This document shows, in pieces, positions 7,831 through 62,247 of a stretch of DNA of 64,000 bases. The stretch is from Naegleria gruberi. Its lineage: Eukaryota. The stretch's first letter is position 1. Each line of letters starts with the position of its first letter. The notes beneath the pieces were generated by a model. That model had not been told where the DNA came from. It did no database searches and saw nothing but the letters and a program-made list of their open reading frames with translations. The translations under genes were made by a program, and so were the position numbers. Location of the stretch: assembly GCA_000004985.1 (NCBI GenBank), contig GG738917.1; one strand, 5' to 3'.

Positions 7831-7918
7831 CCGATGATAGCTCAGCTGGTAGAGCATGGGACTGTAGCAAGAAAAACTGTCATCCTGTGGTCGGCGGTTC
7901 GATTCCGTCTCATCGGAT
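7831..7918 (+). tRNA. tRNA-Tyr (GTA) with a 14-nt intron after position 37
   Basis: Acceptor stem CCGATGA/TCATCGG, D-arm GCTCAGCTGGTAGAGC, anticodon loop CTGTAG + intron (caagaaaaactgtc) + A, T-arm GGCGGTTCGATTCCGTC, discriminator A, downstream T-run. Confidence 0.8.
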
Positions 7919-10599: not shown

Positions 10600-13500
10600 C
10601 TACAATCTTTCTAATTCTTGAATTACTTGTTCTATGTTTGGTCTTTTGGACGGATAATGATTCCAACATTTGGTGATTAATTGAGTGATTGTCCAGTAGA
10701 TTTCTGCATTCTTTTCCTCATCAAATTCAATGCACCATTCTCTGCATGATTCCAAATCGTCGAATGGTATTTTTGGCCTTAAATTATCCTCACAAATAGA
10801 TCTGTGTAATAGCAATTGTGATGGATATTGATTTGGTTTTTCCATTCTTATTTTCCTTAAATAATTTTGATTGCTTGATGTGTAGGGATCGGTAGTTTCA
10901 AATAGAACTTGATATAAAATGATTGAGAAACTATAAATGTCGATGGCCTTAGCATCTGATCTTTCAATTTCCTTAATTGGCATGCTTACTTCAGGACTGT
11001 TGAAAATTAATGAACATCAATTATTATCAAATACTAACCTCATGTAATAGCATGTTCCAATGTGATTTGTGAGCGAAGAATAGGTATGCGTAGATAATAC
11101 TCTTCCCAATCCAAAATCACACAATTTACAAATGGAATGATTGTTGTGCAAGAGTACATTGGCTGGTTTTAAATCTCTGTGAACAATATAATTGGGTTGT
11201 AAATTGTGTAAATATGAAATTCCATAACAAATTTGTAGCAATAAATTCAATTTTTCTCTGATTGGACATTTCAAACTTTCATTTTGTAAATCAGACAAGA
11301 ATGATTCTAAACTTCCTTCCATACATTCCATAATAATGTATCTCTTAGTAACTCCACTAGAAATTCCATAAAAACTAATAATATTAGGGTGTCTTAATTT
11401 AGAGAGAATGGTCGCCTCTCTAAGGAAATCTTCTTCTGATATATTCATATTATTCAAATCGAATACCTTTACAGCAACTTGAATATTCTTCCAGGTTGAC
11501 TTGAAGACTGCTCCTATACCACCAGTACCCAATCTTTTGATGTTTTTATCGAGATTCAAATCTTGAAGAGGTATGAAGAATGATTCTTCCTTTTCATCTG
11601 TTAAGGAGGAGCTTGTTGAATGAGTAGTGAATGAAACATCCTCTGGTAAGAGCAATCTCTGATCCAATTGGATGTCAGTGTCAATAATTCTCTTTTGCCT
11701 ACGATATTTCGAAACAATGCAACCCAGTACAATAATAATTGCAGTAATGAAAATTATTAGAAATGAAAGAGATCCAAGAGTAGCTCCTAAAATCACATCT
11801 GAATTATCCAATTTTTGACATTGATCACCATGATAATTATTCTTACATTCACAATAGTCAGGCTCTAGGCATGTTCCTCTTCCACCACATACTGAATCAT
11901 CATTTGATGGTTTTCCAAAACAGAGTGGATATTGACATTCTCTTCCAGAATACTTTTTGGGAGTACATAAACATTGGTCCTTCTCTACACACTTTCCATT
12001 ATAAGAACCTCCACAAGAAGTGTTGGTTGGTTTTCCAAAACAAATTGGTTTTTCACAAACCATTCCAACGTAACCCTCCATGCATTTACAATTATCTGGA
12101 GAAAGACATTGACCTCTACCATTACAAACTTCTGGATTTAAACTATCCTTTCCGTAACAAAGTGGATATTTGCACTCATCTCCAATATAATTAGTACTAC
12201 AACTGCATTTGTTTGGATATAAACAATCACCATTACCTGAACATACAGAGCTATTGTAACTAGTCAATCCAAAACAAACTGGTGTACAGAGAGAGAAATT
12301 TGAATCAAGAGCGTAACCTAATGGACAACTAGGTACAAATTGTTGAATATAATTGATCTTTGCAGAATAGAGAATTCCTGTATCCTCATCCACAGTAAAA
12401 GCATGAGAGACATCCATTGCAACGGTGCGAATAGTTCCATCTTTGTGTGATATTTTCTTGACAGTATAACTGGTTATTGAAAAATAGTCAGCAAAGAAAA
12501 TATCTTCTGATTTTGTTACCTGAATGGATAGTGGATAGGTGAGTTGGGCATCTGTGGCCTTGATTCCATCCGCAATTATATTGCCACCTCCTGCAATGGT
12601 AGTAACGTATCCATTCGAAACCTTTCTTATTAGTCTATTACCAGTATCACCTATTTTCCAATATTATTAAATCTGGTATCGAGTAATTACTTACAGAAAT
12701 AAAAATCATTCTCATTAAGAGATGAAACTGCCATATTGGATGGCAAATTCAATAGGGCATCTTCATTTCTGACCTTATTTCCATTAAATCCAAATCCTTT
12801 TCCAACAATTGTACTAACTATTCCTTCAATACTAATTTTTCTAATGAGGTGGTTATAAAAATCTGCAAATATAATTTCTCCTTTTGAATTTGAAAAAGCT
12901 CCTCCTACCTTAGCAACAGCATCCAATGATTTTCCATAATCACCTATACCTCCTGCTACAGTAAGTGCTGAAAATGCTAGACTTCTTAAATCTAGGGATA
13001 ATAATCTCACTCTATTATTTGAACTATCTGAAATGTATATAGAATCTGAGTCTATGAACAATCCTTTAGGATTGAAAAACTTAATATTGTATGATGTAGA
13101 AGAATCTCCATTGTAGCCACTCTCTCCCGTTCCAATTACCATTGTTCTACCAGTAGTTGGGCTATATGAAATAATCCTTGAATTGTAAGAGTCAGCAATA
13201 ACTATTGCACTGCCATCCACTACAACTGCATGAGGATAAGATAATGATTTTAGATTCAAAAGCACTGATTTACCAGAATTAGCTCCAAATACAGTAGTTA
13301 ATTGATTGGTTATTAAATTGAAACGCTTGATTTTGTGATTGTTTGTATCGGCAATCATCAAATCAGGATAATTAACATGAATACCTTTTGGTGAATTCAA
13401 TTCTATTTCAGTAAGATCATTACTCTGTACAGTATCACCAGGAGTTCCAACACCTACAATGTTTAACAGCTTTGGATTAAGAAAGGTAGTTGCAACAATT

Positions 13501-15200
13501 CTATTATGTAATGTATCTGCTATAAAAAGGTGAGTAGAATTAAAGCTCAATCCATAAGGACCTTTAAGAGGAGATAAACTACTACCACATATTCCAACAA
13601 AATTAGATAGTGTTCCATTCTTAATTTGTCTAATGCAATGATTATCTGTGTCAGATATATAAATATCACCATTTTTCAAAACAACAATACCATTAGGATT
13701 GCTTAAATAGGACAACAAGGGATCACCAATTAAAGAGTAACCACTAATTCCTGTTCCTGCAACGTTAACCACAAAACCATCTTGTGTAATTTTTCGTATT
13801 CTATGATTTTGAGAATCAGCAAAATAAATTTCACCATTTTGTTTAAATATTCCTGTGGGATGGTTGAGTGTAGAAATATTGGAAGGAACATTATTACTTT
13901 TTTCAACGTGCTCATAATAGGCCACATAGTCACAAAGCATATTCTCTGATTCTAGGAAATTCAATTTTGAAAGAGCATCTTGACTGATAATAAGTAAAGA
14001 ATTATCATTCCTATTCTTGAAGAATTGACCAACAGAAAATGCTCTATTATTCGTGTCACTACATGTAGATTGATAGGAAAGAGTGTTCACAACTTGCTTC
14101 TCAAATGAGTAAGTTCTTAAACTTTGTAAATCAGATATGACCATTTCTTTGGGACCATCAACTGTTCGTCTCATCATTGACATGGAATAGATTGCAGTAA
14201 ATGTGAAATTATTTACATTTGCTCCCTCAATTGCAGCTCCTCCCAGAGTTAAAAAACCTTGAGAGATTCCATTTTCCACTTTAGTCACATTATTATATCC
14301 ACAATAAAATAGTTGTTTTGAATCATCGAGTGATACTAAACAAGGTCTTTCAATATTTACAAATTGAGGCGCATTGGGAGCATCAATGGAAGGATATTCT
14401 ACAAAATTGTATTCATTGCAAGCTGGTGAAGATGCATTACACTGTATATATGCATAATTTGGATAAATATAAATAATAAAGTGTAATGTTTTTTCTGATG
14501 TAATTGAATTTTTAGAAACACGTAATCGATAAAGCATATCAACAGTACGAATGTTCCTCTTTTCTGATAAATCCAATACTGAAAGTATTTTAACTGAGCT
14601 ACGTTGAGTTCCCAAATATAGCTCATTATCCATTAATTCAATTTCGTGTATTTCATCTTGATTCAATGTAGTAAATTGACTCGTCGTTCTATTTAATGTC
14701 ATGTTAAATATCTTTACAATAGATGAACCATTTGCAATAATAAACGAATCCTCATAAATAACAAAATCCATATTTACAATATTTCCAGTATAGTAAACAG
14801 TTGTATTTCCTCTCTCGGGAGATAACATGATGATTTTATCTGAAATTGACATGCCAATCACTTCATTTCCCTCACCAATTTGATGCACCACTAAATTTGA
14901 TTGTAAATCACATCCAATTCCAAAATCTCCAACACTAAATATTTCCCCTGTCAATGTATGAAATTTGTTCAATTTTGAGGAACTATCGGAAACAAAATAA
15001 ATAAACGACTTGTGCAAAATTGATGGTGCCATCAATTGTACAGGTAATGTAATTAGTGAAATGTTTGGTAAATTTCCAAGTCGAGTGCCACTATTTTGAT
15101 AAATTGGATGAAGAAATGTGTCCAGTGAGTGGACCTCACCAACCAAAACCACACACAAGAAGAAAATCACAAAAGTGGTTGTGAATGATCTTGTTGGCAT
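10600..15200 (-). CDS. receptor-type protein kinase (signal peptide, NHL-repeat beta-propeller, EGF-like Cys-rich repeats, TM, Ser/Thr-type kinase), about 1500 aa, 3 exons: 15200..12695, 12650..11039, 10996..10600
   Basis: N-terminal signal peptide MPTRSFTTTFVIFFLCVVLVGEVHS. Many NHL-type repeats (DSQNHRIRKI, DTDNHCIRQI, DTLHNRIVAT, DTNNHKIKRF, DSYNSRIISY, DSSNNRVRLL, DFYNHLIRKI, DTGNRLIRKV). These are followed by 4-5 EGF-like 6-Cys modules (C-x-G-x-G-x-C-x-x-x-x-x-C-x-C-x-x-x-Y-x-G-x-x-C), a TM helix (LGATLGSLSFLIIFITAIIIVLGCIV), and a kinase domain (GTGGIGAVFKS ... VAVK, HRDLKPANVLL, CDFGL, YMSPEV). Introns: GTAAGT at 12694-12689 with acceptor at 12652-12651, which rejoins an NHL repeat in frame; GTTAGT at 11038-11033 with acceptor CAG at 10999-10997, which restores the Y-M-S-P-E motif. 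Confidence 0.75.
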
Positions 15201-34476: not shown

Positions 34477-35841
34477 ATGACAACAACAATGAATGATGAA
34501 ACAACAAGCAAAATATTGATGTCATCAAACACAATAACAGCAGCTCCACTCATAATAGATGCCAATCCACATGATCCTAATCTTGTTTTTGGTACTAATA
34601 ATTTCACAATTCGTAAACCATTTCCATACAAGAACGCACAAGGTGACATATTTTGTATTGTTTGTTGCTTGCAAAAGGGTGAATTAGTTTTTCAACCAAA
34701 AGCTAATTTCAAGGTATGTGTATTTAATGGAATATTAATGTGTGTGTGACAATTTGAATATTATATTTGGTTCAATATTGTTGCAGATTTTCAGAGAAAG
34801 AGGAGCAGTGATAGGAGAGAATTCTGATAGGTCTGCTTTAGTGGAAAAGTTATTTGGTTTTAAGAATGTTTGTGGAGGTAGATTGTGTGACTCTCACTAT
34901 CGATACAGTAAGTAATACACATTGTGAAAATCAATCTTAATATGAGCTACTCTCTTGATTTAATTACACACAAATTCAACTCTATTTTCACACCAATTTC
35001 ACACAATGCCCTACTCGACCTCTCTGGTTAATAACAAATATTCGCATGGACAATCCAACTTGGAAAACCATGGTTTGGAAATACAGTCATGAAATTCAAA
35101 AACAAATCTGCATCCAATAATGACTCACCAACCAGCAACTCAATAGATGGAGAACCAACAACAAAACGAAAGAAGAGGAAAACAGATCTCAAGACCATCT
35201 CATCATCAACAGATATTGACTCTCTTGGTAACTCTGCATTGGGAGGGATAGCAAGTGTGACCAGAAAGAAAAAGAAGGAACAACAACAGCAACAACACTA
35301 TTCCGAATTGAATGATTCCTCAACCACTGTAGATATTGCCATCAATAATGTGAATAATAACATACCCAGCAGCAATTATGGTATGAATAATAATGAAACA
35401 AACGAGAGGGAAATTGATGAACAATCAATTAATTCATCATCTTATCAAGTCATTGTGAGTGAACCAAATTCAACACAACCAATGATGAATAATTTGCATC
35501 ACACAACTTATTCCAGCACCAGCACTACCAACAATAATCATCTGTACAGAAGTAGGGATGAAATTGCACGTGAGGAAAGATATGCCACCAAGAGAAGATT
35601 TAATTTTCTTGTTCGGTTAGTAGAGGAAATGGTTGATGAAGAAGAAATTCACTATCACTATCAACTCTATTTGAGACAACAAGAAGAACTCAAGAGAAAT
35701 CCATCACTACGTTTTAATTCTACAACAACAACTACTATGCAAGGTGTAGAATATTTAGAGGAAGATGAAGATGAATCATCACTGTCATCTTCATCAAATA
35801 ATCAAGAGGAAGATCAAATCATTACAAACGAGTACCGATAA
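34477..35841 (+). CDS. hypothetical protein, 3 exons (34477..34713, 34787..34907, 35087..35841) with N/S/T-rich low-complexity body
   Basis: Exons joined in phase via GTATGT and GTAAGT donors. Small Cys-containing N-terminal region (FCIVCC ... CGGRLC) of unknown family. Confidence 0.4.
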
Positions 35842-35969: not shown

Positions 35970-37041
35970 ATGAAGAAACTAAAGAATACATTTCGCTCTT
36001 CTTCAGTTGATCCACTTGATCTTGTAGAAGCAAATGATGCTTCCATGATGTGTAAGTTATTCTCCAAGATTTTCAATGTTAAATATTTAAAACATTGTAA
36101 ACTGTGATGATAATAATTTACAACAACAATTAATCATAATTTAACATATTTAAATAGGTATGACATTGGATGAAGTAAAAGGAGAATTGGAAAAGTTGAT
36201 TGTTTCCATGCATGTTGAAACTAAATCTGATAGTAAAAACTCAGAGGAAGAAGGAGATGATATCAGTTTTAATTATGATGTGATTGGTAAGGACGTTCCT
36301 AGATTGGTTGGAAAGACCTATGTGAATGGTGTGAAAATGTCAAATGTTCCACATTTTATTGTTTCACTTATTGATTTAATTTTAAATAGAGGAATTCCAA
36401 CTGAATTACAACAACCAGGTGATAACTGTGCTGTTGATGTTCATGAATATTATAATAATTTATATGCTCAATTGAGTTCAGTGATGAAACAAAATAATAT
36501 TGTAGAGGATAGTGTTTCATTGACAAGTTATTTAAAGTCACTCTTCATGGTCCACAATCCAGTCTTTCAACTTTTGAGATCATATAATCAAAATGCTATT
36601 TCTCAACCTGTTACATATTACAAATTAATTTTACAAACAGTTCACAAACTTCAATTCCAAGATAAGGATTGGAATGTTTACTGGGACATTACAGATCATG
36701 ACATGTATGGTAAAAAGAGAACTATTTCAGTTACACACGTAAGATCTGAAAAATACCTCTCAGATAGACAAATTAAATTTAGTTTTTCATGGAGTATTAA
36801 ATTCGAATATGAACAAGTTGTTAAGAGTATTGAGGAGTATAATAGAAGTCCAGTTTCAAACTTGGAATTAATTGCCCAAAAGGATTACACTCCAGCTCGT
36901 TTAACTCAAGTCACCATGAGCTTTAATAATCTTGATGAATTCTATGAAAATGTTCCATGTGAAAATGCTTCCTTCTCCTCAAAGGAAAGTACCATTGCCT
37001 TCTTGGAATACATTTTCGAGAGCACTTCTATCAAGTTTTAA
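35970..37041 (+). CDS. hypothetical protein, 2 exons (35970..36051, 36158..37041)
   Basis: A short first exon is joined to the 293-aa ORF by a GTAAGT ... AAATAG intron in phase 1. No recognised domain. Confidence 0.4.
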
Positions 37042-41285: not shown

Positions 41286-43070
41286 ATGAGAGCAGTTGTG
41301 AGGTTATGCCCTCATCATACTTATCCGACCAATAATAATAATAATATTAATAATTCATTGAAGACCGGAAGGGAAACATCAGAGGTTCCCTCACCAAACT
41401 ATTATTATGAAGCAACGGATTTGGAACATTTTACAGTGTATGAAAATAATGTTAGGGAAAATGGAAAAACCTTCGAATGTAAACATATTTATGATAGCAG
41501 TGCAACACAATTTGATATTTTTGCTAATGAAGTAGTTCCGTTGATTGAGAAATGCTTTCAGGCTCAGGATTGTGCTGTTCTTTATTTCGGAAGTGATTTT
41601 GCTGGAAAACGATTTTCACTAGAAGGATTACCTGAATATCCAGGATTTTTCTATAGAACTATTGAGCTTTTATTTGACACAATAGGTAGGATTAATAATC
41701 TATTTCTGTTAACTTATCATTTAACCAGCTGGTGAGGATCCTTCAAACAAATGTAGACTATTTTACTCTTCCTTCACTATTGAGAAGGAAACGATATTCG
41801 ACAACTTGCCTAGTGATTCCAGTTCTCAAATAAAATTGAGAGATGATAAAAAGAAAGGAATAATAGCAGAGGGTGGAACCTTAATAGAACTGTACGATAT
41901 TCAACAAGCTCTTCAAGTTTATTATGAATCAACGTAAGTGGATTTTAGTTTCAAGTTACCAAATTTCTTAGATCAAAATTTTATAAATCCCTCTCCATGG
42001 GTCAGAATAAGCATTTAGTTATAAATATCAGGATTGATATTAGCAATGCTTGCAAATCTAATTTTACAAAAGGAGAATACGGCATTTTAAGCATGGTTTC
42101 AGTTGGGAGTCCTACAATTAAACCTCAATCTTCAGTGGAAAAGAACCAAGAAATGGAAGTAGCTAATTTTTGGGTTAACCACTTAGGTAGTTGCATGAAT
42201 TCATTACACAATTCTGTGAATCCCTCAATTCCATTTCACAAATCAAAATTTACTCTTCTTCTTAGAGATTTTCTAATGAGAAACAAGGACAGCACTTCAT
42301 TGTTCAATCTTAGCCCTCTTCATGAAAGTTACAAGTTTGTTGTTCAAACTTTAACAATATGCAACAGAATATGTAAGACAACGCCAGCTAGTGTTGAAAC
42401 GAAAAAGACAATAACCAAGAGCTCTGCTAAAACAAGTTCAGCCACAGAAAGGAAAACCACTAATTCAGATCTAGAAAAGAAAACTCAAGAAGTTGACGCC
42501 TTAACAAGAGAAAACAGAGAACTTTCTGATAAGATGAAGGCAATAGAGGACCAATTAAGGAAGATCCAAGAAAAACAAGAAAAGCAAACGATTCAAATTA
42601 ATGCTCTATCGCCAACAAAACCAAAAGACGATGATGGATTACGGGTTTCAAAAAAGATGGCCAGACCTTCTTCTTCCAAATCGATACTGAATACGAGTGC
42701 TAGCAGCGAACTAGACAGATACAGAGAGGTAATGGAAGGAACATTAACAAAGTTAAAAAACCAAATTAAATCATTGGAGATTGAGAACTCTGAGGTAAAG
42801 AAAGAAATGACTAAACGTGAGAATACATACAAGAAGAAAATCTCAGAGCTTGTAAATGATGTCAAAAGAGATAGTTATCAAAAGCAAATTCAAGAATTAC
42901 AAACTAGAGTTGAATCACTAACAAAAACTGTACACGAGCTGAAAGCACAAAAGAAAAACTTAACAGAAGGAGAAAAAATATACAGAACTCAGTTTGAAAA
43001 ATTATCAAAAGAAAACCAAGAACTAAAACAAAAACTAGGAATAGTCTCTCATTCAATTGCTTCTAGCTGA
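41286..43070 (+). CDS. kinesin-like protein with degenerate motor motifs plus C-terminal coiled coil, 3 exons (41286..41685, 41729..41933, 41972..43070)
   Basis: Motor-domain architecture is recognisable: FECKHIYDSSATQFDIFANEVVPLIEKCFQAQDCAVLYFGSDFAGKRFSLEG ... FFYRTIELLFDTI, then YDIQQA, then IPFHKSKFTLLLRDFL (an HIPYRDSKLTRLLQDSL-like motif). The P-loop is GSDFAGKR instead of GQTGSGKT, and the switch I/II motifs are not conserved. The C-terminal 200 aa are K/E-rich heptad coiled coil. Confidence 0.7.
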
Positions 43071-43332
43071 ATGAGGAAGAATATGAAGTCCACAGCCTAG
43101 ATGATGATAGTGAATTTATGAACGAGCCTAGTGAGCTACCTCCTGAAAAATCTGATCATGAAAGAAAGTTGGAAAGAGAAGTAATTTTACTGAAGGAGGC
43201 TCTGCAGTTTGCCCTCTCTCAAAAACAATCAAATCCAAACGCTTCACAACAGGGATCTGGATCAGTCAATCCTTTCAGGATTTCTAATGTTCAACCTCCT
43301 TTCTTGAAAAAAAAATAATTTAATAATTAAAA

Positions 43333-46300
43333 ATGATTAACGACAACAACCAGGAACCTCCATTAACACCTTCTCAAACGCAACATAGAAGAACACAATC
43401 GGAATTCATTCAAACTTCTCAATCATCTCCACCAGACAATATAATTAATCCATCTCCAATTTCTACTCCGATTCATTCTTCATCAACCATTGAATCCATA
43501 GAATCCGACAATAATTTCGTAACGCCAACAACTCTTATTAACAACCAAGAATCAAGTCAAAAGTCAACAACCCATCACGAAAGAAAATTTAAATCAAAAC
43601 ATTTTTCATTATTCGAATTAAATGGAAAGGAAGATAATAGTCACATCTACACACCTTCTTCATTGATATTTTATACTCCATCATCAAGAAAGAAATCACT
43701 TGTTGTTTCGAATAATAACAATCCAAATAATGATATTGATAATAATTTACTTTTAACACCCCGAGCTACAACAACTTCGACCGAAATGAGCTTGTCACCA
43801 ACACCCAAAATGAGAACAAGCTCACTTTTTGTAAAATCACCAAATACCAAAGAGAAATCACCTCATCAGCAAACATTGTCATTGGAAGAGTTTCCATTGC
43901 CAGATTTTTCAAGTTTGAGAAAATTTAATCATATTACTTTTGATCAATTTGAGATAAATCAAACAAATCAACAACAAACTAAACTAGAGAATGATACAGC
44001 GGGAGTAATTGAAGAAAGTGAACTTTTGATAGAGGATGGAAAGCCTTCAAGTGTGAGGAATGAGTTTTTTCAAAGCCCTTTGCCAAGCGTAAACGAACTA
44101 TTAACTCAAAATGTAGAGAAGAAGGAAAATACTGTAAATATTGGTCCTTATTCGATTTATACAGACACCGAGTATCCATTAAAATCTAATTCTAAAACCA
44201 TTGAAATGGTTTTCGGTAATATTACTAAGAATTTACCTGAGAATGAAAGTGGTATTACTGATAAATACTTTTATGATGGAATTAATACCATAACAAATGA
44301 GAAAGTGAATGTAATAAGTCAATTAGTTAGTGCAGAGTTTGTAGAAACATACAGAGAAAGATCGAAAAAGTTACTTTTAATAGATAATGTAACTGGAATA
44401 ATCAGATTTTTGGACGTTGCTGAAATCCAATTGAACAAAAATAATATTGAGTCTATCGATTTCAATACTGGAAACATTTCATCAGCTGGCTCAATATTCT
44501 ACATTTTCGTAGAGCCTTGTTTATTAATGTACAAAATTATTCAAAAGACTAAAATAGAGGAAAAGAAATTTTCTTACCCAATTTTATTAGAATGGTTGAG
44601 CCAATTATCTGATGGATTAGCAAATATTCATGAGCAACTTGAGACTGTGCATGGAAATATTGACGTGAACTCTATATTTTTCTCCAAACTTGAAGAAAGT
44701 ATGAAAATAGGAAACATGCTACTTATTACACCACAAATTCTTGCAAGTGCTGATCCAATGAAATCTCCAAGTATTGACAAACCAAGTGAGAGAATGTTTG
44801 AAGCCACTTCAAATAAGCCAATATATCACTCATTTACACCTCTAGACTTGGGAGGAGACAGGTATGGAGGTGTTTGTAGGTATGATTTTAAAACTGAAGT
44901 GTGGTTATTTGGCATCTTGATGATTACAATCATCACTATGAAAAATATGAATGTTATCACGCATAGCTTCTTAGACAATGACCAGTCTTTTGTTTCTTCT
45001 ATATTCCAGTTGATAAGTAAGCAATATAATGATAGATTTAGTGCACTTATTTGGAGATGTTGTCACTATGACCCAAGTTGCAGACCTAACATGAGAGAAT
45101 TATGTCAACAACTTGCTCTTTTAAAGAAATATAGAAGTATTTCTGGATCCACAACAACCAGTTCAACTTTCAATACCTCATTTTACGAAAATGATGTTAA
45201 TCAATATCAGAAAAGATTAGACGATATTCGTGTAAACATGGAATTGGGAAGTATTTTGAGCGATTTATATGAATGTGAGGATGGAGCAAGTGAAAAACAA
45301 TCTGGTAACAGATTACCAACAAGAAATAGTAACAGCTACGACATTTTACCACTATCAAGTATGGATGGCCCAGCTGTTCTTCCCTCTCTTATTTCAATAG
45401 GTAGAACAATTATGAGATACGTTAATAAGCACTACAAAATCAAAGACAAGAAAAAGAAGAAACTAAAATTAGCAACTATGAAAACAAAACTAATGAAAAT
45501 TGCACATATACAAGAAACAGAAGTTGATAACAGAAGATCTAGTAAAAAAACCTTGGAGGAAGAGTTGAAATTGAGAAACCACACCAGAGTCTTTGAACAT
45601 CAAGAAGAGGTAGATCTCAAAATACTCCAAGCTAAAATTGCCAATCAATACTCAATAATTTCAGTAATTGGGAGTGGTAGTCAGGGAACTGTCATCAAAG
45701 CATTCGATAGCCAAAATAATAGATTTGTAGCAATCAAACGTATTAGAATGAAGGATAATAATGATACCATGTTGGCCTCCAAAGAAATTTCAGCCATGTT
45801 CTCACTCAATGACAATGATAACATTTGTAAAATTTACAACTGGTTTATTTATTGTGAGAATAGAGAAGATAAGAAAATAATTACCTCAGAAAATCTTTCA
45901 GATAGTGAGGATGAGCATGATTTTGATGAGGAAGATGACGAGGAGGATGAGTACGATTTCAAGGATTATGCTAACGAGACTTGGTACATTGGAATTGTAA
46001 TGGAATATTGTTCTGAAGGAGATTTGAGAAAAGCCATGAGATACTGTAGAGAATGCAATACTTACTTTAAAAATTCAACAGTTAAAAAGTGGCTCAATGA
46101 GTTGATTTGTGCAACAGATTATATTCATAGAAGAAATTTAATGCACAGGGATATTTCTACAAAGAATATTTTCCTTCATAGCAACACTGAATTACAACCA
46201 TCTAGCACATTAATTGGAACACCTCCATCATATTTTGACGCTTGTCATGTAAAAATTGGAGATATGGGACTTTCCATAAAGTTAGAAGAACTCAATAGAA

Positions 46301-47468
46301 ATAACTCGGCTTGGGGAACCAGACGATGGATGGCACCTGTAAGTAATTATCAATTAATATTTCTAAAATCTCAATATAGGAGCAACGGTTGGGTAAAAGA
46401 TATGACTCTACTGTGGATATTTGGAGTTTAGGATGTATTGCATTAGAAATGGTTTTACAATATTCGTATTCGATGGTTGTAAAGTCAAGTAATTCAATGG
46501 ACAATATGGATCATGATATGAGACATGTGGACTATTATCAAGAAATTAAGAATAATCCTAACTTTTTGAATGATATACTAAGACCACTGGAGTCATACTA
46601 TGATGACAATATAATAGAATTCATTAAAAAGTGCCTTGTTATTGAACCATGGAAACGAGCCAAGGCTCAACAATTATATGGCCTACTCAATCAAGATATT
46701 AGATCAGTGGAGAACGCTGAGGTTCACTATGACCAGAGCCTTGAAGAGTTTCATCCATCTCCCTTCTCTGTGGAAAAGAAAGGATTGGAACAACTCCATG
46801 CAGCAACACCCACCGCTGCCAATATCCCTAACAAATTAATTGAAAATGCAAGTCTAAGTAACTTGGCGCTCTTACAAAACGAAAGGGATAAAGTGAATGC
46901 ATTGATAGAGAAAGTAGAAGAATCACAAAGTATTCGTAAAATATCCAATCCAGTATTTATAGAGCTTGGAGCTGATAACAAAAAATATACTAAACCAGAA
47001 CCAAAAGCAACCCACAAACTAACATCCACCATGACAATCGAAAGTAGAAATGTTCTCACAAGCCATGGATTAAGCACATTTTTCAAAGAAATTGAAGTTG
47101 AAGAAAATCATGAAAAAGAAAGCCAATCACTGAAAGACCACAATGAATCCTCATCAAGCAATAATGAAATGCTTCCAGAAGAATTTTCCACACAAGTTAA
47201 AAGAGGTCATGAAAAGTCACTCCACAAACTCTTGCAAAAATCAATATCTGATTGGACAACAAACGATGTAGGAATTTGGCTCATTTCAATTGATTTTAGC
47301 AAATTTGTTGAGAATTTTCAATCTCAGAATATTACCGGAAGAGCTTTATTGTTAATAAGAGAAGAAGATATGAAAGATGTGGGTGTAGTTAAATTGGGAG
47401 ACAAACTTTTATTGTGGAACATGATTCAGAATTTAAGACAACTTCACGATAGAAAGCAAAAGAAATAA
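43333..47468 (+). CDS. protein kinase with long N-terminal extension and C-terminal SAM domain, 2 exons (43333..46338, 46380..47468)
   Basis: Kinase: VIGSGSQGTVIKAF ... VAIKRI, a large acidic insert, HRDISTKNIFL, KIGDMGLS, W-MAP | E, DIWSLGC. The intron GTAAGT ... ATATAG (46339-46379) splits APE. C-terminal SAM: DWTTNDVGIWLISIDFSKFVENFQSQNITGRALLLIREEDMKDVGVVKLGDKLLLWNMI. Confidence 0.8.
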
Positions 47469-47693: not shown

Positions 47694-50600
47694 ATGCACA
47701 TTAAATCTGTAACGATACAAGGCTTTAAATCATATCGTGATCAAACTTTCACTTCACAAGAATTTTCAGCCTCACAGAATATAATCGTTGGTAGAAACGG
47801 TAGTGGTAAATCCAACTTTTTCAGTGCCATCTCGTTCGTACTGAGTGAAAAGTTTAGTAAACTCAGAAGCGAAGAAAGACAAGCCTTTTTGCATGAAGGT
47901 ACAGGTAGAGGTGTCATTTCTGCCTTTGTTGAAATTGTTTTTGACAATTCTGACAACAGATTACCAACAGATAGCAAAGAAGTGGCTATTAGAAGAACCA
48001 TTGGTTTAAAGAAAGACGAATATAGAATTGATGGCAAAGCTGTGACACAACGTGAAGTATTTAATTTATTGGAATCTGCTGGTCTCAGTTCAAGTAATCC
48101 ATACTATATTGTAGAACAAGGTAAAGTCTCTAGTTTGACAACTATGAAGGATGCGGAAAGACTTGAATTGTTAAAAGAAATTGCGGGAACTAAAGTTTAC
48201 GATCAAAAGAGAGCAGAATCATTAACAATCATGAAAGATACTGAACAAAAGAAACAAAAAATTGATGAAGTTATTGAATATGTACAAGGTCGTCTTGATG
48301 AACTAGAGCAAGAAAAAGAAGAACTTAAAGAATTCCAAAAGCTTGACAAGGATAGAAGATGTGTAGAATATGCCATTTTCGAACAAGAACTAAGCGAAGC
48401 AACTAAAAATTTAGAAGAAATAGAAAAAGCTAGAGAAAGTCAACATACCCTCGCTAATCAATTGCATATGGACAAGATGCATTTACAACAAAAACTAAAG
48501 GACTACGAAAGGGATATTAAAACTGCTAAACTTCAAAAGGATACTAAGCAAAAAGAAAAAGAAATTTTAGAAAGTGAAAGACAAGACTTAATCAGACAAA
48601 GAACTAAGGTTGACCTAGAATTAAAAGACTACCAACAATTACATAAAGATGATGAAAGCACTCGTAATGACTTTGAAGAAGAACTTAGGGAAATAGATGA
48701 AAAGATCAATGATTTGAACTCACAATTGAATGATGAACTGATTCCACAATTAGATTTATTGGTTAGAGAAGAAAAGGAAATTTCTGATAAATTACAACAA
48801 AGTGAAAGAAGAATGAACGAACTTTTGAGTATCCAAGGTAGAAAGAATAAGTTTGATAATGTAAAAGACAGAAACAAATGGTTAACTGAAGAAATTAACA
48901 AATTAGAAAAAGTTAACGCAAGTTATGATGAACAAATTACAACAAGAACTTCTGATGTTAAAAAACTTAAAGAAGCACTTTCTACCTATGAAAGAACTAT
49001 TCAAGAAAAGGAAAAATCATTCTCTGACAATAGAAAGAAAATTGAACAATACCAAAGAAATTATGTAAACTTAAAGGATCGTAGAGATAATCTTACCAAT
49101 CAAAAGAAAGAATTATGGAAGGAACAAAATGATGTTGAAAAGGAAACACAAAGACTTCAAGACGAACTTGTCAGAGCTGAAAGAAAGTTAGATATGACTT
49201 TCCCAAAGTCTATTTCATCTGGTGTTCGTTCTGTAAATACTATCAAAAAGGAAAGAAATCTCTCTGGAGTTTATGGTACAGTTATTGAATTAATTAGATG
49301 TGATCCAAAATACCATAGAGCTGTTGAAGTTACTGCTGGAAATTCTCTCTACCATGTTGTTGTAGAAAATGAAAAAGTTTCTGGTGATATCATCAAAATT
49401 ATGAATGAAAGTAATGCTCCTGGTAGAGTTACCTTTATCCCACTCAACAGATTAAAAGCTTTGGACAGTGATGACAGTATTGGTACATCTGAATTCATTC
49501 CTCTTTGGAAGAAGATCGATGCTGATTCAAAGTTTAATGAAGTTGTCAAGAGTTTGTTTGGAAAGACTTTCTGTACCAAAACATTGGAAGATGGCGCTCA
49601 ATTTGCTAAAGATCACAATGTAAACTGTGTAACTCTTGCTGGTGATCAAGCTAATAGAAAGGGTACTCTTACTGGTGGTTATATTGAACAAAAACAATCC
49701 AGATTAGATTGTTGGAAACAAATCAAGGATTTGAGAAAGACATATTCTGAAAGCTTTGATAAGTCCAAGAAGATTAAGGCTTCAATTGCCACTCTCGAAG
49801 AACAACTCAACAGTTGTATTACTGATTTACACAAGGTTGAATCTGAAGTTCACAACTCTAAGAATACCATTCAATACGAACAACAAGAAATTCACAACCT
49901 TACTGTAAGAAGAGATCTTATCAAGGACAATCTTCGTTCAAACGAAGAATTGTTGGAGAAGGTCAAATCTATCCTCTCTTCCAACAAGGAAACCATCGAA
50001 TCATACACCAAGGAAAAGGATTTACCACTAGATGCTACACTCAACTCTAGAGAAAAGCAAGAACTTGAAAAGTTATCAAAGTCTGTTACTGAACTGACAA
50101 CCAAGTTACAAGGTGTCTCCAAGAACAGATTAGAAAAAGAAACCAAGAAAGAAAGTCTTAGAATTCAATTGACTACAAACTATATTCCAAGAAAGTCCGA
50201 ACTTCAAGTCTTGATAGAAACTCTCCCAACAGATAATTCTATTTCATCCTCTCATCAAACTTTAATGCAACTCCAAACTGAGAAGCAAGTTACAGAAGAA
50301 AGAATTAAAGATACAACTGAATCAGTTAAGAGACTTGATCAAGAAATTGATGAGTTGGGCGAAACCATCAGAAATAAGCAAGAACAATTGGAAACTGAAA
50401 AGTCTGAAGAAACAAAGAAATTACAAACTCTTCAAGAAAAGGCCAGTTCTCTTGAAAAACTTCTCAACAAGAAGAAGATTTGGTCTCAAAAGAAGGAAGA
50501 ATGTATTAAACAAATCAAAGAATTGGGAACCCTTCCATCAGACTTTAGAAAATATCTTGAAACTGATCAAAAGTTATTGCTCAAGAAATTGCACAATACC

Positions 50601-51386
50601 AACGAAAAGCTGAAGAAATTCGGTCATGTCAACAAGAAGGCTCTTGATCAATACGAACAATTCAGTAATCAAAAGGAAGAATTCCTGGAAAAGAAGAGTG
50701 AACTTGATAGCAGTGCTAAAGCAATTAATGAACTTATCCAAGTTTTAGATAAGAGAAAGGATGAAGCAATTGTAAGAACATTTAAGCAGGTACAAAAAAA
50801 CTTCCAAGAAATTTTCCAAAATCTTGTTCCAGGTGGTCATGCTTCTCTGTCTATGAAATATAGAAATGGTGAAGATGAAGAAGAGGAAGAAGAAGAAGAT
50901 GAAGAAGCAAAGGAAGTTGAACAATATGCTGGTGTTTCCATCAAGGTCTCTTTCATGTCAAGTGGTGACTCTGAAGAAGATCAATCATACCATCTCATGC
51001 AACAGCTTTCAGGTGGTCAAAAGTCACTTGTAGCTCTCTGTCTTATTTTTGCTATCCAACGTTGTGACCCTGCACCATTCTATTTATTCGACGAAATTGA
51101 TGCTGCTCTCGATCCTGCCTACAGAACATCCGTTGCCAATATGATTGATACTCTTTCAACGAAGGAAAAGATTCAATTTATTACAGCAACGTTCAAACCA
51201 GAAGTTTTAGAAACAGCTGAAAACTTTTATGGTATTTCATTCAAGAATAAGGTTTCTTCAATCAAATTGATTTCAAAGAACGAAGCTCTCAAAGTTTTGC
51301 AAGAAGAAGAAAGACTAGGTGGCAATCCTCAAGAAATTGAAAGACCATCGTCACCTGCAAAAGTTGATGAAATGGAAGATGAATAA
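47694..51386 (+). CDS. SMC3: structural maintenance of chromosomes protein 3 (cohesin SMC3)
   Basis: 1230 aa, single exon. N-terminus MHIKSVTIQGFKSYRDQT ... VGRNGSGKSNFF (Walker A) ... VEIVFDNSDNRLP is SMC3-specific. Long coiled coils, a hinge, and C-terminal LSGGQKSLVALCLIFAIQRCDPAPFYLFDEIDAALD (signature and Walker B). Confidence 0.95.
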   Translation: MHIKSVTIQGFKSYRDQTFTSQEFSASQNIIVGRNGSGKSNFFSAISFVLSEKFSKLRSEERQAFLHEGTGRGVISAFVEIVFDNSDNRLPTDSKEVAIRRTIGLKKDEYRIDGKAVTQREVFNLLESAGLSSSNPYYIVEQGKVSSLTTMKDAERLELLKEIAGTKVYDQKRAESLTIMKDTEQKKQKIDEVIEYVQGRLDELEQEKEELKEFQKLDKDRRCVEYAIFEQELSEATKNLEEIEKARESQHTLANQLHMDKMHLQQKLKDYERDIKTAKLQKDTKQKEKEILESERQDLIRQRTKVDLELKDYQQLHKDDESTRNDFEEELREIDEKINDLNSQLNDELIPQLDLLVREEKEISDKLQQSERRMNELLSIQGRKNKFDNVKDRNKWLTEEINKLEKVNASYDEQITTRTSDVKKLKEALSTYERTIQEKEKSFSDNRKKIEQYQRNYVNLKDRRDNLTNQKKELWKEQNDVEKETQRLQDELVRAERKLDMTFPKSISSGVRSVNTIKKERNLSGVYGTVIELIRCDPKYHRAVEVTAGNSLYHVVVENEKVSGDIIKIMNESNAPGRVTFIPLNRLKALDSDDSIGTSEFIPLWKKIDADSKFNEVVKSLFGKTFCTKTLEDGAQFAKDHNVNCVTLAGDQANRKGTLTGGYIEQKQSRLDCWKQIKDLRKTYSESFDKSKKIKASIATLEEQLNSCITDLHKVESEVHNSKNTIQYEQQEIHNLTVRRDLIKDNLRSNEELLEKVKSILSSNKETIESYTKEKDLPLDATLNSREKQELEKLSKSVTELTTKLQGVSKNRLEKETKKESLRIQLTTNYIPRKSELQVLIETLPTDNSISSSHQTLMQLQTEKQVTEERIKDTTESVKRLDQEIDELGETIRNKQEQLETEKSEETKKLQTLQEKASSLEKLLNKKKIWSQKKEECIKQIKELGTLPSDFRKYLETDQKLLLKKLHNTNEKLKKFGHVNKKALDQYEQFSNQKEEFLEKKSELDSSAKAINELIQVLDKRKDEAIVRTFKQVQKNFQEIFQNLVPGGHASLSMKYRNGEDEEEEEEEDEEAKEVEQYAGVSIKVSFMSSGDSEEDQSYHLMQQLSGGQKSLVALCLIFAIQRCDPAPFYLFDEIDAALDPAYRTSVANMIDTLSTKEKIQFITATFKPEVLETAENFYGISFKNKVSSIKLISKNEALKVLQEEERLGGNPQEIERPSSPAKVDEMEDE

Positions 51387-57469: not shown

Positions 57470-57541
57470 TCCCGTGTAGTCCAATGGCTAGGATACCTGG
57501 CTTTCACCCAGGAGGTCCGGGTTCAATTCCCGGCATGGGAG
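57470..57541 (+). tRNA. tRNA-Glu (TTC)
   Basis: TCCCGTGTAGTCCAATGGCTAGGATACCTGGCTTTCACCCAGGAGGTCCGGGTTCAATTCCCGGCATGGGAG. Anticodon loop CTTTCAC. Followed by a T-run. Confidence 0.9.
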
Positions 57542-61386: not shown

Positions 61387-61456
61387 GCGTCGATGGTTTA
61401 GTGGTAGAATACGGCGTTGCCATCGCCGTGACCCGGGTCAATTCCCGGTCGACGCA
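61387..61456 (+). tRNA. tRNA-Gly (GCC)
   Basis: Acceptor stem GCGTCGA/TCGACGC, anticodon stem-loop CGGCG-TTGCCAT-CGCCG, T-arm CCGGGTCAATTCCCGG, downstream T-run. Confidence 0.85.
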
Positions 61457-62009: not shown

Positions 62010-62090
62010 ACGTTGTAAGGCGGTCTTGACCGAGTGGTTAAGGTGATTGACTAGAAATCAATTGGGGAGACCCGCACAGGTTCGAGTCCT
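62010..62090 (+). tRNA. tRNA-Ser (AGA), class II with long variable arm
   Basis: Acceptor stem GCGGTCT/AGATCGC, D-arm GAGTGGTTAAGG, anticodon stem-loop ATTGA-CTAGAAA-TCAAT, variable arm TGGGGAGACCCGCAC, T-arm CAGGTTCGAGTCCTG. Confidence 0.85.
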
Positions 62091-62174
62091 GTAGATCGCG
62101 ATTGTTTTTATTAAGGTATCACATGTTAAAGTGTGATATTATTTTGATTAATAAACATATTGTTATTGGGAAGA

Positions 62175-62247
62175 TCCCCCTTAGCTCAGTCGGTAGAGCG
62201 TCAGACTGTTAATCTGCAGGTCGGTGGTTCGAGCCCACCAGGGGGAG
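62175..62247 (+). tRNA. tRNA-Asn (GTT)
   Basis: Acceptor stem TCCCCCT/AGGGGGA, D-arm GCTCAGTCGGTAGAGC, anticodon loop CTGTTAA, T-arm GGTGGTTCGAGCCCACC. Confidence 0.85.

Follow-up and report, generated by a model that had tools for sequence, protein, structure and literature searches.

The 64,000-nucleotide (nt) stretch of Naegleria gruberi contig GG738917.1 analyzed here (the window) is AT-rich, with a G+C content of ~33%, and carries eukaryotic genes with very short introns. One of these genes encodes a kinesin-like protein whose N-terminal 335 residues, as we show here, keep a complete kinesin motor fold. As judged from its sequence, the nucleotide machinery within this fold is gone: the Walker A threonine has become an arginine and the N4 arginine a cysteine, the serines and the arginine of switch I are lost, and so are the aspartate, glycine, and glutamate of switch II. 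The gene is real, intact, and under selection, and it belongs to a previously undescribed orphan family that is common to heterolobosean amoebae and jakobid flagellates and across which the motif losses are fixed. An earlier reading of the letters without database searches (the sequence-only reading) had proposed an ATPase-dead kinesin-like scaffold. This proposal is supported by the family-wide losses, by the finding that the catalytic elements are the least conserved, by a ratio of nonsynonymous to synonymous divergence (dN/dS) of ~0.09, and by the fold predicted for the ortholog from Willaertia magna; it is from these features that we infer the loss of ATPase activity and a scaffold role.

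From the ATG at 41286, the reading frame is interrupted at two GT..AG intervals and is continuous after their removal up to a TGA at 43068-70 (Table 1). Both introns had been called in the sequence-only reading, and both hold: their removal restores one frame, and the position of intron 2, after YYES/YYEW, is identical in a relative from the European Nucleotide Archive (ENA) (locus L002, where the intron measures 37 nt) and in Naegleria lovaniensis (locus L003). The donor of intron 1 lies at the same codon in another ENA relative (L004), and this intron is absent from N. lovaniensis and from Willaertia, whose intronless ortholog gene is colinear with exon 1. A 15-nt intron at 41934-41948 was considered in place of intron 2 and was rejected, as it runs into stop codons. 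The downstream neighbor, a large protein-kinase gene (43333-47468, + strand), contains a 41-nt GTAAGT..TAG intron (46339-46379) that splits WMAP from E; introns of ~40 nt are therefore typical in the window.

The sequence-only reading had ended the gene at 43070, which is probably ~250 nt too short. A second frame, coding for 83 amino acids (aa), opens directly past the TAG at 43064-66. Because this frame aligns with the C termini of the Willaertia ortholog (P0001) and of the ENA relatives P0002/P0154, the gene most likely ends with the TAA at 43316-43318. Enumeration of the frame-restoring joins gave three ways to connect the exon 3 and exon 4 frames: a GT..AG interval at 43044-43066 (23 nt), a GT..AG interval at 43044-43075 (32 nt), and one missing base at 43065-67. 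Longer frame-restoring introns at this junction were rejected, as they would remove residues that align with the orthologs. The gene thus probably continues beyond the TGA at 43070 into a conserved C-terminal exon, via either a very short intron or a 1-nt insertion or deletion. The putative intron has an atypical donor, GTCTCT, and falls short of the lengths of the three introns that are well supported in the window (43, 38, and 41 nt, with GTAAGT or GTAGGA donors); exon 4 is therefore considered probable and not proven. What we describe is probably a four-exon gene with a product of ~642 aa, or of 567 aa if translation stops at the TGA at 43070.

Although N. gruberi proteins are present in the database, two word-index protein searches of it returned none for this gene, which therefore appears to be absent from the public gene set of N. 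gruberi. The lack of a matching protein in the public sets searched would also fit a decaying gene or pseudogene in which the frame break at 43044-43070 is a real disabling mutation, as would the position of the TGA, ahead of the conserved C-terminal module, and the unusually short intron with its atypical donor that is required to repair the frame. Nevertheless, we regard decay as very unlikely. Apart from this break, ~1.9 kb of coding sequence is intact over three exons with correct splice signals, and neither the head nor the two coiled coils would be missing from the 567-aa product. Beyond the break, the 83-codon frame has remained open and conserved, and any frameshift would therefore be very recent. 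Moreover, exon 1 is 84% identical (109/129 aa) to that of L004, a close environmental relative, and the comparison, which includes the P-loop, gave proportions of nonsynonymous (pN) and synonymous (pS) differences of 0.10 and 0.60 (dN/dS of ~0.09 over 129 codons). Exon 1 is therefore under strong purifying selection, contrary to what a pseudogene would show.

The spliced protein matches the Pfam Kinesin profile PF00225 with an E value of 9.2e-33 and 114 bits (cutoff, 29.3), with aa 43-334 aligned to profile positions 23-323 of 327. This match, the check that the sequence-only reading had set in advance, is far beyond chance. The colinearity with kinesin motors, the GSDFAGKR, YDIQQA, and IPFHKSKFTLLLRD segments, and the heptad-rich tail had been pointed out in the same reading, and all are present in the stretch that it gave. 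In addition, the spliced protein matched 136 distinct solved kinesin sequences, and a profile of the family scored up to 153 bits against solved kinesin motors. For the search of the protein representatives and the structure predictions, the kinesin-like protein was represented by the Willaertia ortholog and by the unspliced window exons. AlphaFold predicts a confident kinesin fold for the head of the Willaertia ortholog (predicted local distance difference test [pLDDT], 87.1; predicted template modeling score [pTM], 0.88), and the figures listed for the fold are 31.5 for KIF9, 30.8 for Chlamydomonas KLP1, 30.2 for kinesin-1, 30.1 for KIF18A, 26.3 for KIF7, and only 20.0 for Vik1. Foldseek and profile-sequence searches matched every kinesin family at nearly equal scores, and the best sequence scores, those to kinesin-8, were only 5-10% over those to kinesin-2, -5, and -14. 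Placement in any named kinesin family was not accepted, as the N-terminal half alone best matches kinesin-14 and the whole domain best matches kinesin-8; the protein is an orphan within the kinesin superfamily.

In the HMMER alignment with Plasmodium kinesin-8B, GSDFAGKR falls on GATGAGKT, GQNKH on SSRSH, and SVGSPT on DLAGSE, in agreement with the earlier description of a degenerate P-loop and of unrecognizable switches I and II. All four motifs by which an active kinesin is recognized (Walker A, switch I, switch II, and N4) are lacking in the window protein, and a head of this kind would be expected to have no capacity for ATP hydrolysis or force generation. That these motifs are the artifact of a wrong gene model or of a sequence error, and that the true transcript is canonical, is hardly credible. 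A six-frame scan of the whole window revealed no canonical GxxxxGK[ST], SSRSH, or DLAGSE coding near the gene in any frame and thus no hidden canonical exon of the kind that, according to the sequence-only reading, would have spoken against an ATPase-dead kinesin; the only relevant Walker A motif was that of the SMC3 gene at 47790. The Willaertia gene, which is colinear and has no introns, is degenerate to the same degree, and the same substitutions are found in independent assemblies from at least five other organisms. The argument that sequence error could not account for all three motifs is strengthened by the presence of the same losses in every family member from Heterolobosea and Jakobida.

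Table 1. Features of the kinesin-like gene in the 64,000-nt window
Feature	Position (nt)	Strand	Description
Kinesin-like gene	41286-43318	+	Three exons plus probable exon 4; start is the ATG at 41286
Exon 1	41286-41685	+	aa 1-133 plus 1 nt; N terminus MRAVVRLCP, family block NYYYEATDLEHFTVYENNVRENGKTF, degenerate P-loop
N4 remnant RLCP	41301-41312	+	Canonical RxRP; second Arg replaced by Cys
Degenerate Walker A/P-loop GSDFAGKR	41589-41612	+	aa 102-109; canonical GxxxxGK[ST]
Intron 1	41686-41728	+	43 nt, GTAGGA..CAG, phase 1
Exon 2	41729-41933	+	beta4 to alpha3; L8-like IKLRDDKKKG (41830-41859), YDIQQA (41893-41910)
Intron 2	41934-41971	+	38 nt, GTAAGT..TAG, phase 2
Exon 3	41972-43043	+	Remaining motor-like domain (to ~nt 42368, aa 334), linker, coiled-coil stalk
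Switch I remnant GQNKH	42000-42014	+	Canonical SSRSH (NxxSSRSH); His alone retained
Switch II remnant SVGSPT	42099-42116	+	Canonical DLAGSE (DxxGxE)
alpha4-L12-alpha5 region	42165-42269	+	Family-specific alpha4 NFWVNHLGSCMNSL; highly conserved IPFHKSKFTLLLRD (42228-42269)
Stalk helix/coiled coil 1	42435-42608	+	aa 357-414; ends at invariant Ser-Pro (ALSPTK, 42603-42620)
Stalk helix/coiled coil 2	42693-43037	+	aa 443-557; opens with family box ELDRYREVMEG (42708-42740)
Putative intron 3	43044-43066	+	23 nt, GTCTCT..TAG; alternative acceptor 43075 (32 nt); removes in-frame TGA 43068-70
Probable exon 4	43067-43318	+	83 aa plus TAA (43316-43318); acidic linker, conserved helix ERKLEREVILLKEALQFALSQ (43160-43222), C-terminal NVQPPFLKKK (43286-43315)

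When the Willaertia head was compared exhaustively with 1.84 billion representatives by phmmer, ~15 proteins or fragments scored clearly above the bulk of ordinary kinesins, and among the best 150 matches, the proteins without all three catalytic motifs were exactly these family members. Those with names come from N. lovaniensis (KAG2382489.1), Willaertia magna, and Percolomonas cosmopolitus (A0A7S1KWE4), which belong to the Heterolobosea, and from the jakobid Andalucia godoyi (ANDGO_02140); all are Discoba, and the remaining members come from metagenome or read-archive assemblies. The closest named protein is the Willaertia magna hypothetical protein, with 43% identity over the full length and 46% in the head. 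Four signatures are found both in the window protein and in the members from Naegleria, Willaertia, Percolomonas, and Andalucia: an MRxxxR(L/I)CP N terminus, a P-loop of the form Gxxx[GSA][GA]x[RK], the sequence (I/V)P(F/Y)HKSKxT, and a stalk box, (D/E)xY(R/K)(E/Q)(V/A)(M/T)E. Orthology is further supported by the shared position of intron 2, by the conserved donor of intron 1, and by a GlfB_C-like gene that adjoins the locus in N. gruberi, N. lovaniensis, and Willaertia, reported as a three-genus microsynteny. Literature searches revealed no description of the family, and the database entries of the orthologs are hypothetical or automatically named proteins only.

The GlfB_C-like gene lies at 36160-37041 (+ strand) of the window and is inverted relative to the kinesin-like gene in N. 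gruberi. A short segment at 34573-34716 (92% identity over 48 aa) is likewise common to the neighborhoods of the kinesin-like genes of Willaertia and N. lovaniensis. The annotated N. lovaniensis protein (436 aa; L003 5881-7353, PYSW02000023.1) begins at an internal methionine; the frame is open for ~30 codons further upstream, to MRLVLRLCP, and the annotated model is thus N-terminally truncated. This ortholog, which has a 2-residue deletion in the P-loop and is without the conserved C-terminal module, for these reasons is considered to evolve faster than the other members.

For comparison of the motifs, the family was aligned to five canonical kinesins, with human KIF5B among the reference sequences. 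The N4 motif reads R(L/I)CP in 11 of 13 family sequences, the exceptions being RITP and RICQ, and the Walker A Thr/Ser position is occupied by Arg or Lys in all 15 sequences; a comparison of the P-loop among orthologs had been suggested as a check in the sequence-only reading. The Walker A Lys position is variable (K, R, D, E, V, or G), SSRSH of switch I is reduced to a conserved His only, switch II is unrecognizable, and the canonical INxSL of alpha4 is replaced by an (N/S)xW motif with a conserved Trp. Strongly conserved in the family are (I/V)P(F/Y)HKSKxTxLLRD in L12/alpha5 and RLRDDxK(K/R)G in L8. Expressed as mean pairwise identities among nine full-length members, with element boundaries as in kinesin-1, the values for the family and the canonical kinesins, respectively, are 0.64 and 0.82 for alpha5, 0.47 and 0.39 for L12, 0.47 and 0.35 for the segment after the P-loop, and 0.37 and 0.29 for the L8 region, compared with 0.13 and 0.58 for switch I, 0.12 and 1.00 for switch II, 0.12 and 0.36 for the neck linker, and 0.09 and 0.31 for L11. 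These alignments suggest that constraint has shifted off the chemo-mechanical elements and has been retained on the microtubule-facing ones.

Conceivably, the head has kept nucleotide binding and works, with noncanonical chemistry, either as an ATPase of very low rate or as a switch gated by nucleotide. N. gruberi, Willaertia, and two fragments have GxxxxGK with the phosphate-binding Lys, pairwise identity is kept at 0.36 in the P-loop region and at 0.47 in the segment following it, and the conserved Arg/Lys at the Thr position together with the N4 Cys suggests a pocket that has been remodeled and not one that has decayed. Set against this, no member has the Mg-coordinating Thr/Ser, most members other than these have D, E, V, G, or R in place of the Lys, the N. 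lovaniensis loop is 2 residues shorter, and neither the serines and arginine of switch I nor the DxxGxE of switch II is left, with no conservation at these sites. We therefore hold a nucleotide-dependent head to be distinctly improbable; the proteins of N. gruberi and Willaertia may still bind nucleotide to a residual degree, which cannot be a property of the family. As another role for the substituted residue, the conserved Arg/Lys at the Walker A Thr position could fill the former nucleotide pocket and lock the head in one microtubule-binding conformation.

The tail of the N. gruberi protein shows heptad periodicity at aa 359-418 and 441-573, above 99% of a shuffled null, and AlphaFold predicts two long helices (aa 357-414 and 443-557) with pLDDT values of >90. 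The linker between them, which is predicted to be disordered, holds the invariant Ser-Pro. The ELDRYREVMEG box at the start of the second helix and a C-terminal helix of the form (K/R)KLExE...AL..AL are kept from Naegleria to Andalucia, and a related C-terminal motif, (K/R)KL..(D/E)L.....AL..AL, is found in the jakobid members. The tail alone gave no meaningful match to the PDB.

The reading that we favor, and that we consider reasonably likely, is that of a noncatalytic tether or scaffold. The head would be kept as a nucleotide-independent binding module. Since constraint is strongest in L12/alpha5 and L8, which face the microtubule, this module would most likely bind to the microtubule lattice. 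The head would be tied by a flexible linker to the two-segment coiled-coil stalk, through which the protein would dimerize, and the DRYREVME box and the C-terminal LxxALxxAL...PPF module of the tail would recruit partners. In this way, the protein would serve as a static tether or scaffold at the spindle or at the flagellar apparatus, the only microtubule arrays that Naegleria is known to build. The flagellar apparatus is transient, and Naegleria has separate tubulins for the spindle and for the flagella.

Several points weigh against the tether or scaffold reading. Microtubule binding is something that we infer, and alpha4, the main tubulin contact in canonical kinesins, is remodeled; in addition, of the three basic residues that kinesin-1 has in L12/alpha5, two are not conserved. 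The kinesin fold model is that of the Willaertia ortholog, whose head is 46% identical, and not that of the N. gruberi protein. Since N. gruberi and Willaertia retain GxxxxGK, nucleotide binding without hydrolysis may occur in both. The N. lovaniensis ortholog is more divergent and is without the C-terminal module, so that the functions ascribed to the tail may not be universal. Finally, KIN-B of trypanosomes, a protein of similar architecture, has been reported not to bind microtubules (PMC10987093).

The stalk would also be compatible with a different role, in which its coiled coil pairs the dead head with an active kinesin and the protein forms the noncatalytic half of a heterodimeric motor, supplying a second, nucleotide-independent site for attachment or targeting. 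Such pairs are known from yeast, where Vik1/Cik1 join Kar3, and from the chromosomal passenger complex (CPC) of trypanosomes, where KIN-B joins KIN-A. The conserved stalk boxes would suit a specific partner interface, and all family members seen so far belong to the Discoba, the supergroup that includes the trypanosomes. By analogy, then, a heterodimeric motor deserves consideration, and yet we think it rather unlikely.

The possible tie to KIN-B needs to be put more cautiously. Trypanosoma brucei KIN-B (Tb927.7.5040) is an inactive orphan kinesin of the kinetoplastid CPC, and its likeness to the window protein is one of architecture (PMC10987093): it has 624 aa, compared with ~642 aa here, and both organisms are Discoba. 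KIN-B is reportedly also without the conserved alpha4-L12 residues (PMC10987093), whereas L12/alpha5 is the best-conserved region here. No kinetoplastid-like proteins were found among the close matches to the family, and no family motif was found in the supplements of the KIN-B paper, a weak test; these contain no full KIN-B sequence. That the family is the heterolobosean and jakobid counterpart of kinetoplastid KIN-B is an analogy that we consider unlikely to hold.

Inactive kinesin-like proteins as such are a known kind, represented by KIN-B, Vik1/Cik1, Cos2/KIF7, KIF26, and VAB-8. The partners of the kinesin-14 Kar3, Vik1 and Cik1, bind microtubules, and their motor-homology domains, like those of the family, have a kinesin fold without a working nucleotide site and are joined to a coiled coil. 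In Vik1/Cik1-type proteins, however, the motor-homology domain is C-terminal and follows the coiled coil, an arrangement that the window protein does not have. Costal2/KIF7, KIF26A/B, and VAB-8 are metazoan kinesins with low or no ATPase activity and with different tails, and Cos2 and VAB-8 have been described as atypical (PMC2867816). The comparison with KIF26 made in the sequence-only reading stands as an analogy only, as nothing ties the gene to that metazoan family. The degeneration seen here is independent of that of the metazoan inactive kinesins, with RxCP and the Walker A Thr-to-Arg/Lys change being particular to the family. The exhaustive search also brought up an unrelated 373-aa kinesin (P0055) with the P-loop GQTGAGKR (Thr to Arg), switch I ALSRTH, and switch II RMAGSE, whose sequence suggests that the Thr-to-Arg change of Walker A arose independently in this protein.

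Elsewhere in the window, SMC3 is encoded at 47694-51386 (+ strand) by a single uninterrupted open reading frame (ORF) of 1230 aa. Of the 936 residues of the public N. gruberi SMC3 model, 935 lie in two blocks that are identical to this ORF (aa 1-248 and 544-1230), a match that identifies the window as N. gruberi reference genome sequence. The model omits aa 249-543, probably through the excision of a false intron; orthologs of 1235 aa from both N. lovaniensis and Willaertia cover the ORF over its full length. Four tRNA genes lie near the 3' end of the window on the + strand, at 57470-57541 (Glu-TTC), 61387-61456 (Gly-GCC), 62020-62100 (Ser-AGA), and 62175-62247 (Asn-GTT), and a fifth match of 87 nt at 7831-7917 (+ strand), which was found with Rfam only, may contain an intron. 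On the - strand, at 11017-12417 and 12687-15200, an ORF with epidermal growth factor (EGF) repeats and a kinase domain stands head-to-tail with an NHL-repeat ORF, and both may belong, as exons, to one gene for a teneurin-like receptor kinase.

In practical terms, the N. gruberi reference annotation appears to be without the gene, and the N. lovaniensis model is cut short at its N terminus. Published kinesin surveys use predicted proteins matching PF00225 and discard the most divergent sequences (PMC2867816); a gene without a predicted protein would therefore not have entered such surveys. The family provides a natural experiment on which parts of a kinesin head are kept after the loss of catalysis, here L12/alpha5, L8, and the segment after the P-loop, and it is a possible outgroup for the origin of trypanosome KIN-B. 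Should the family after all be the counterpart of KIN-B, the Discoba ancestor would have had a dead-kinesin scaffold of a kinesin-based chromosomal passenger or spindle complex, and the unconventional CPC regarded as kinetoplastid specific would be far older than thought. Naegleria is a model for the specialization of microtubule arrays. A kinesin that is conserved, under selection, and catalytically dead is a candidate for the structural regulation of one of the arrays of this organism.

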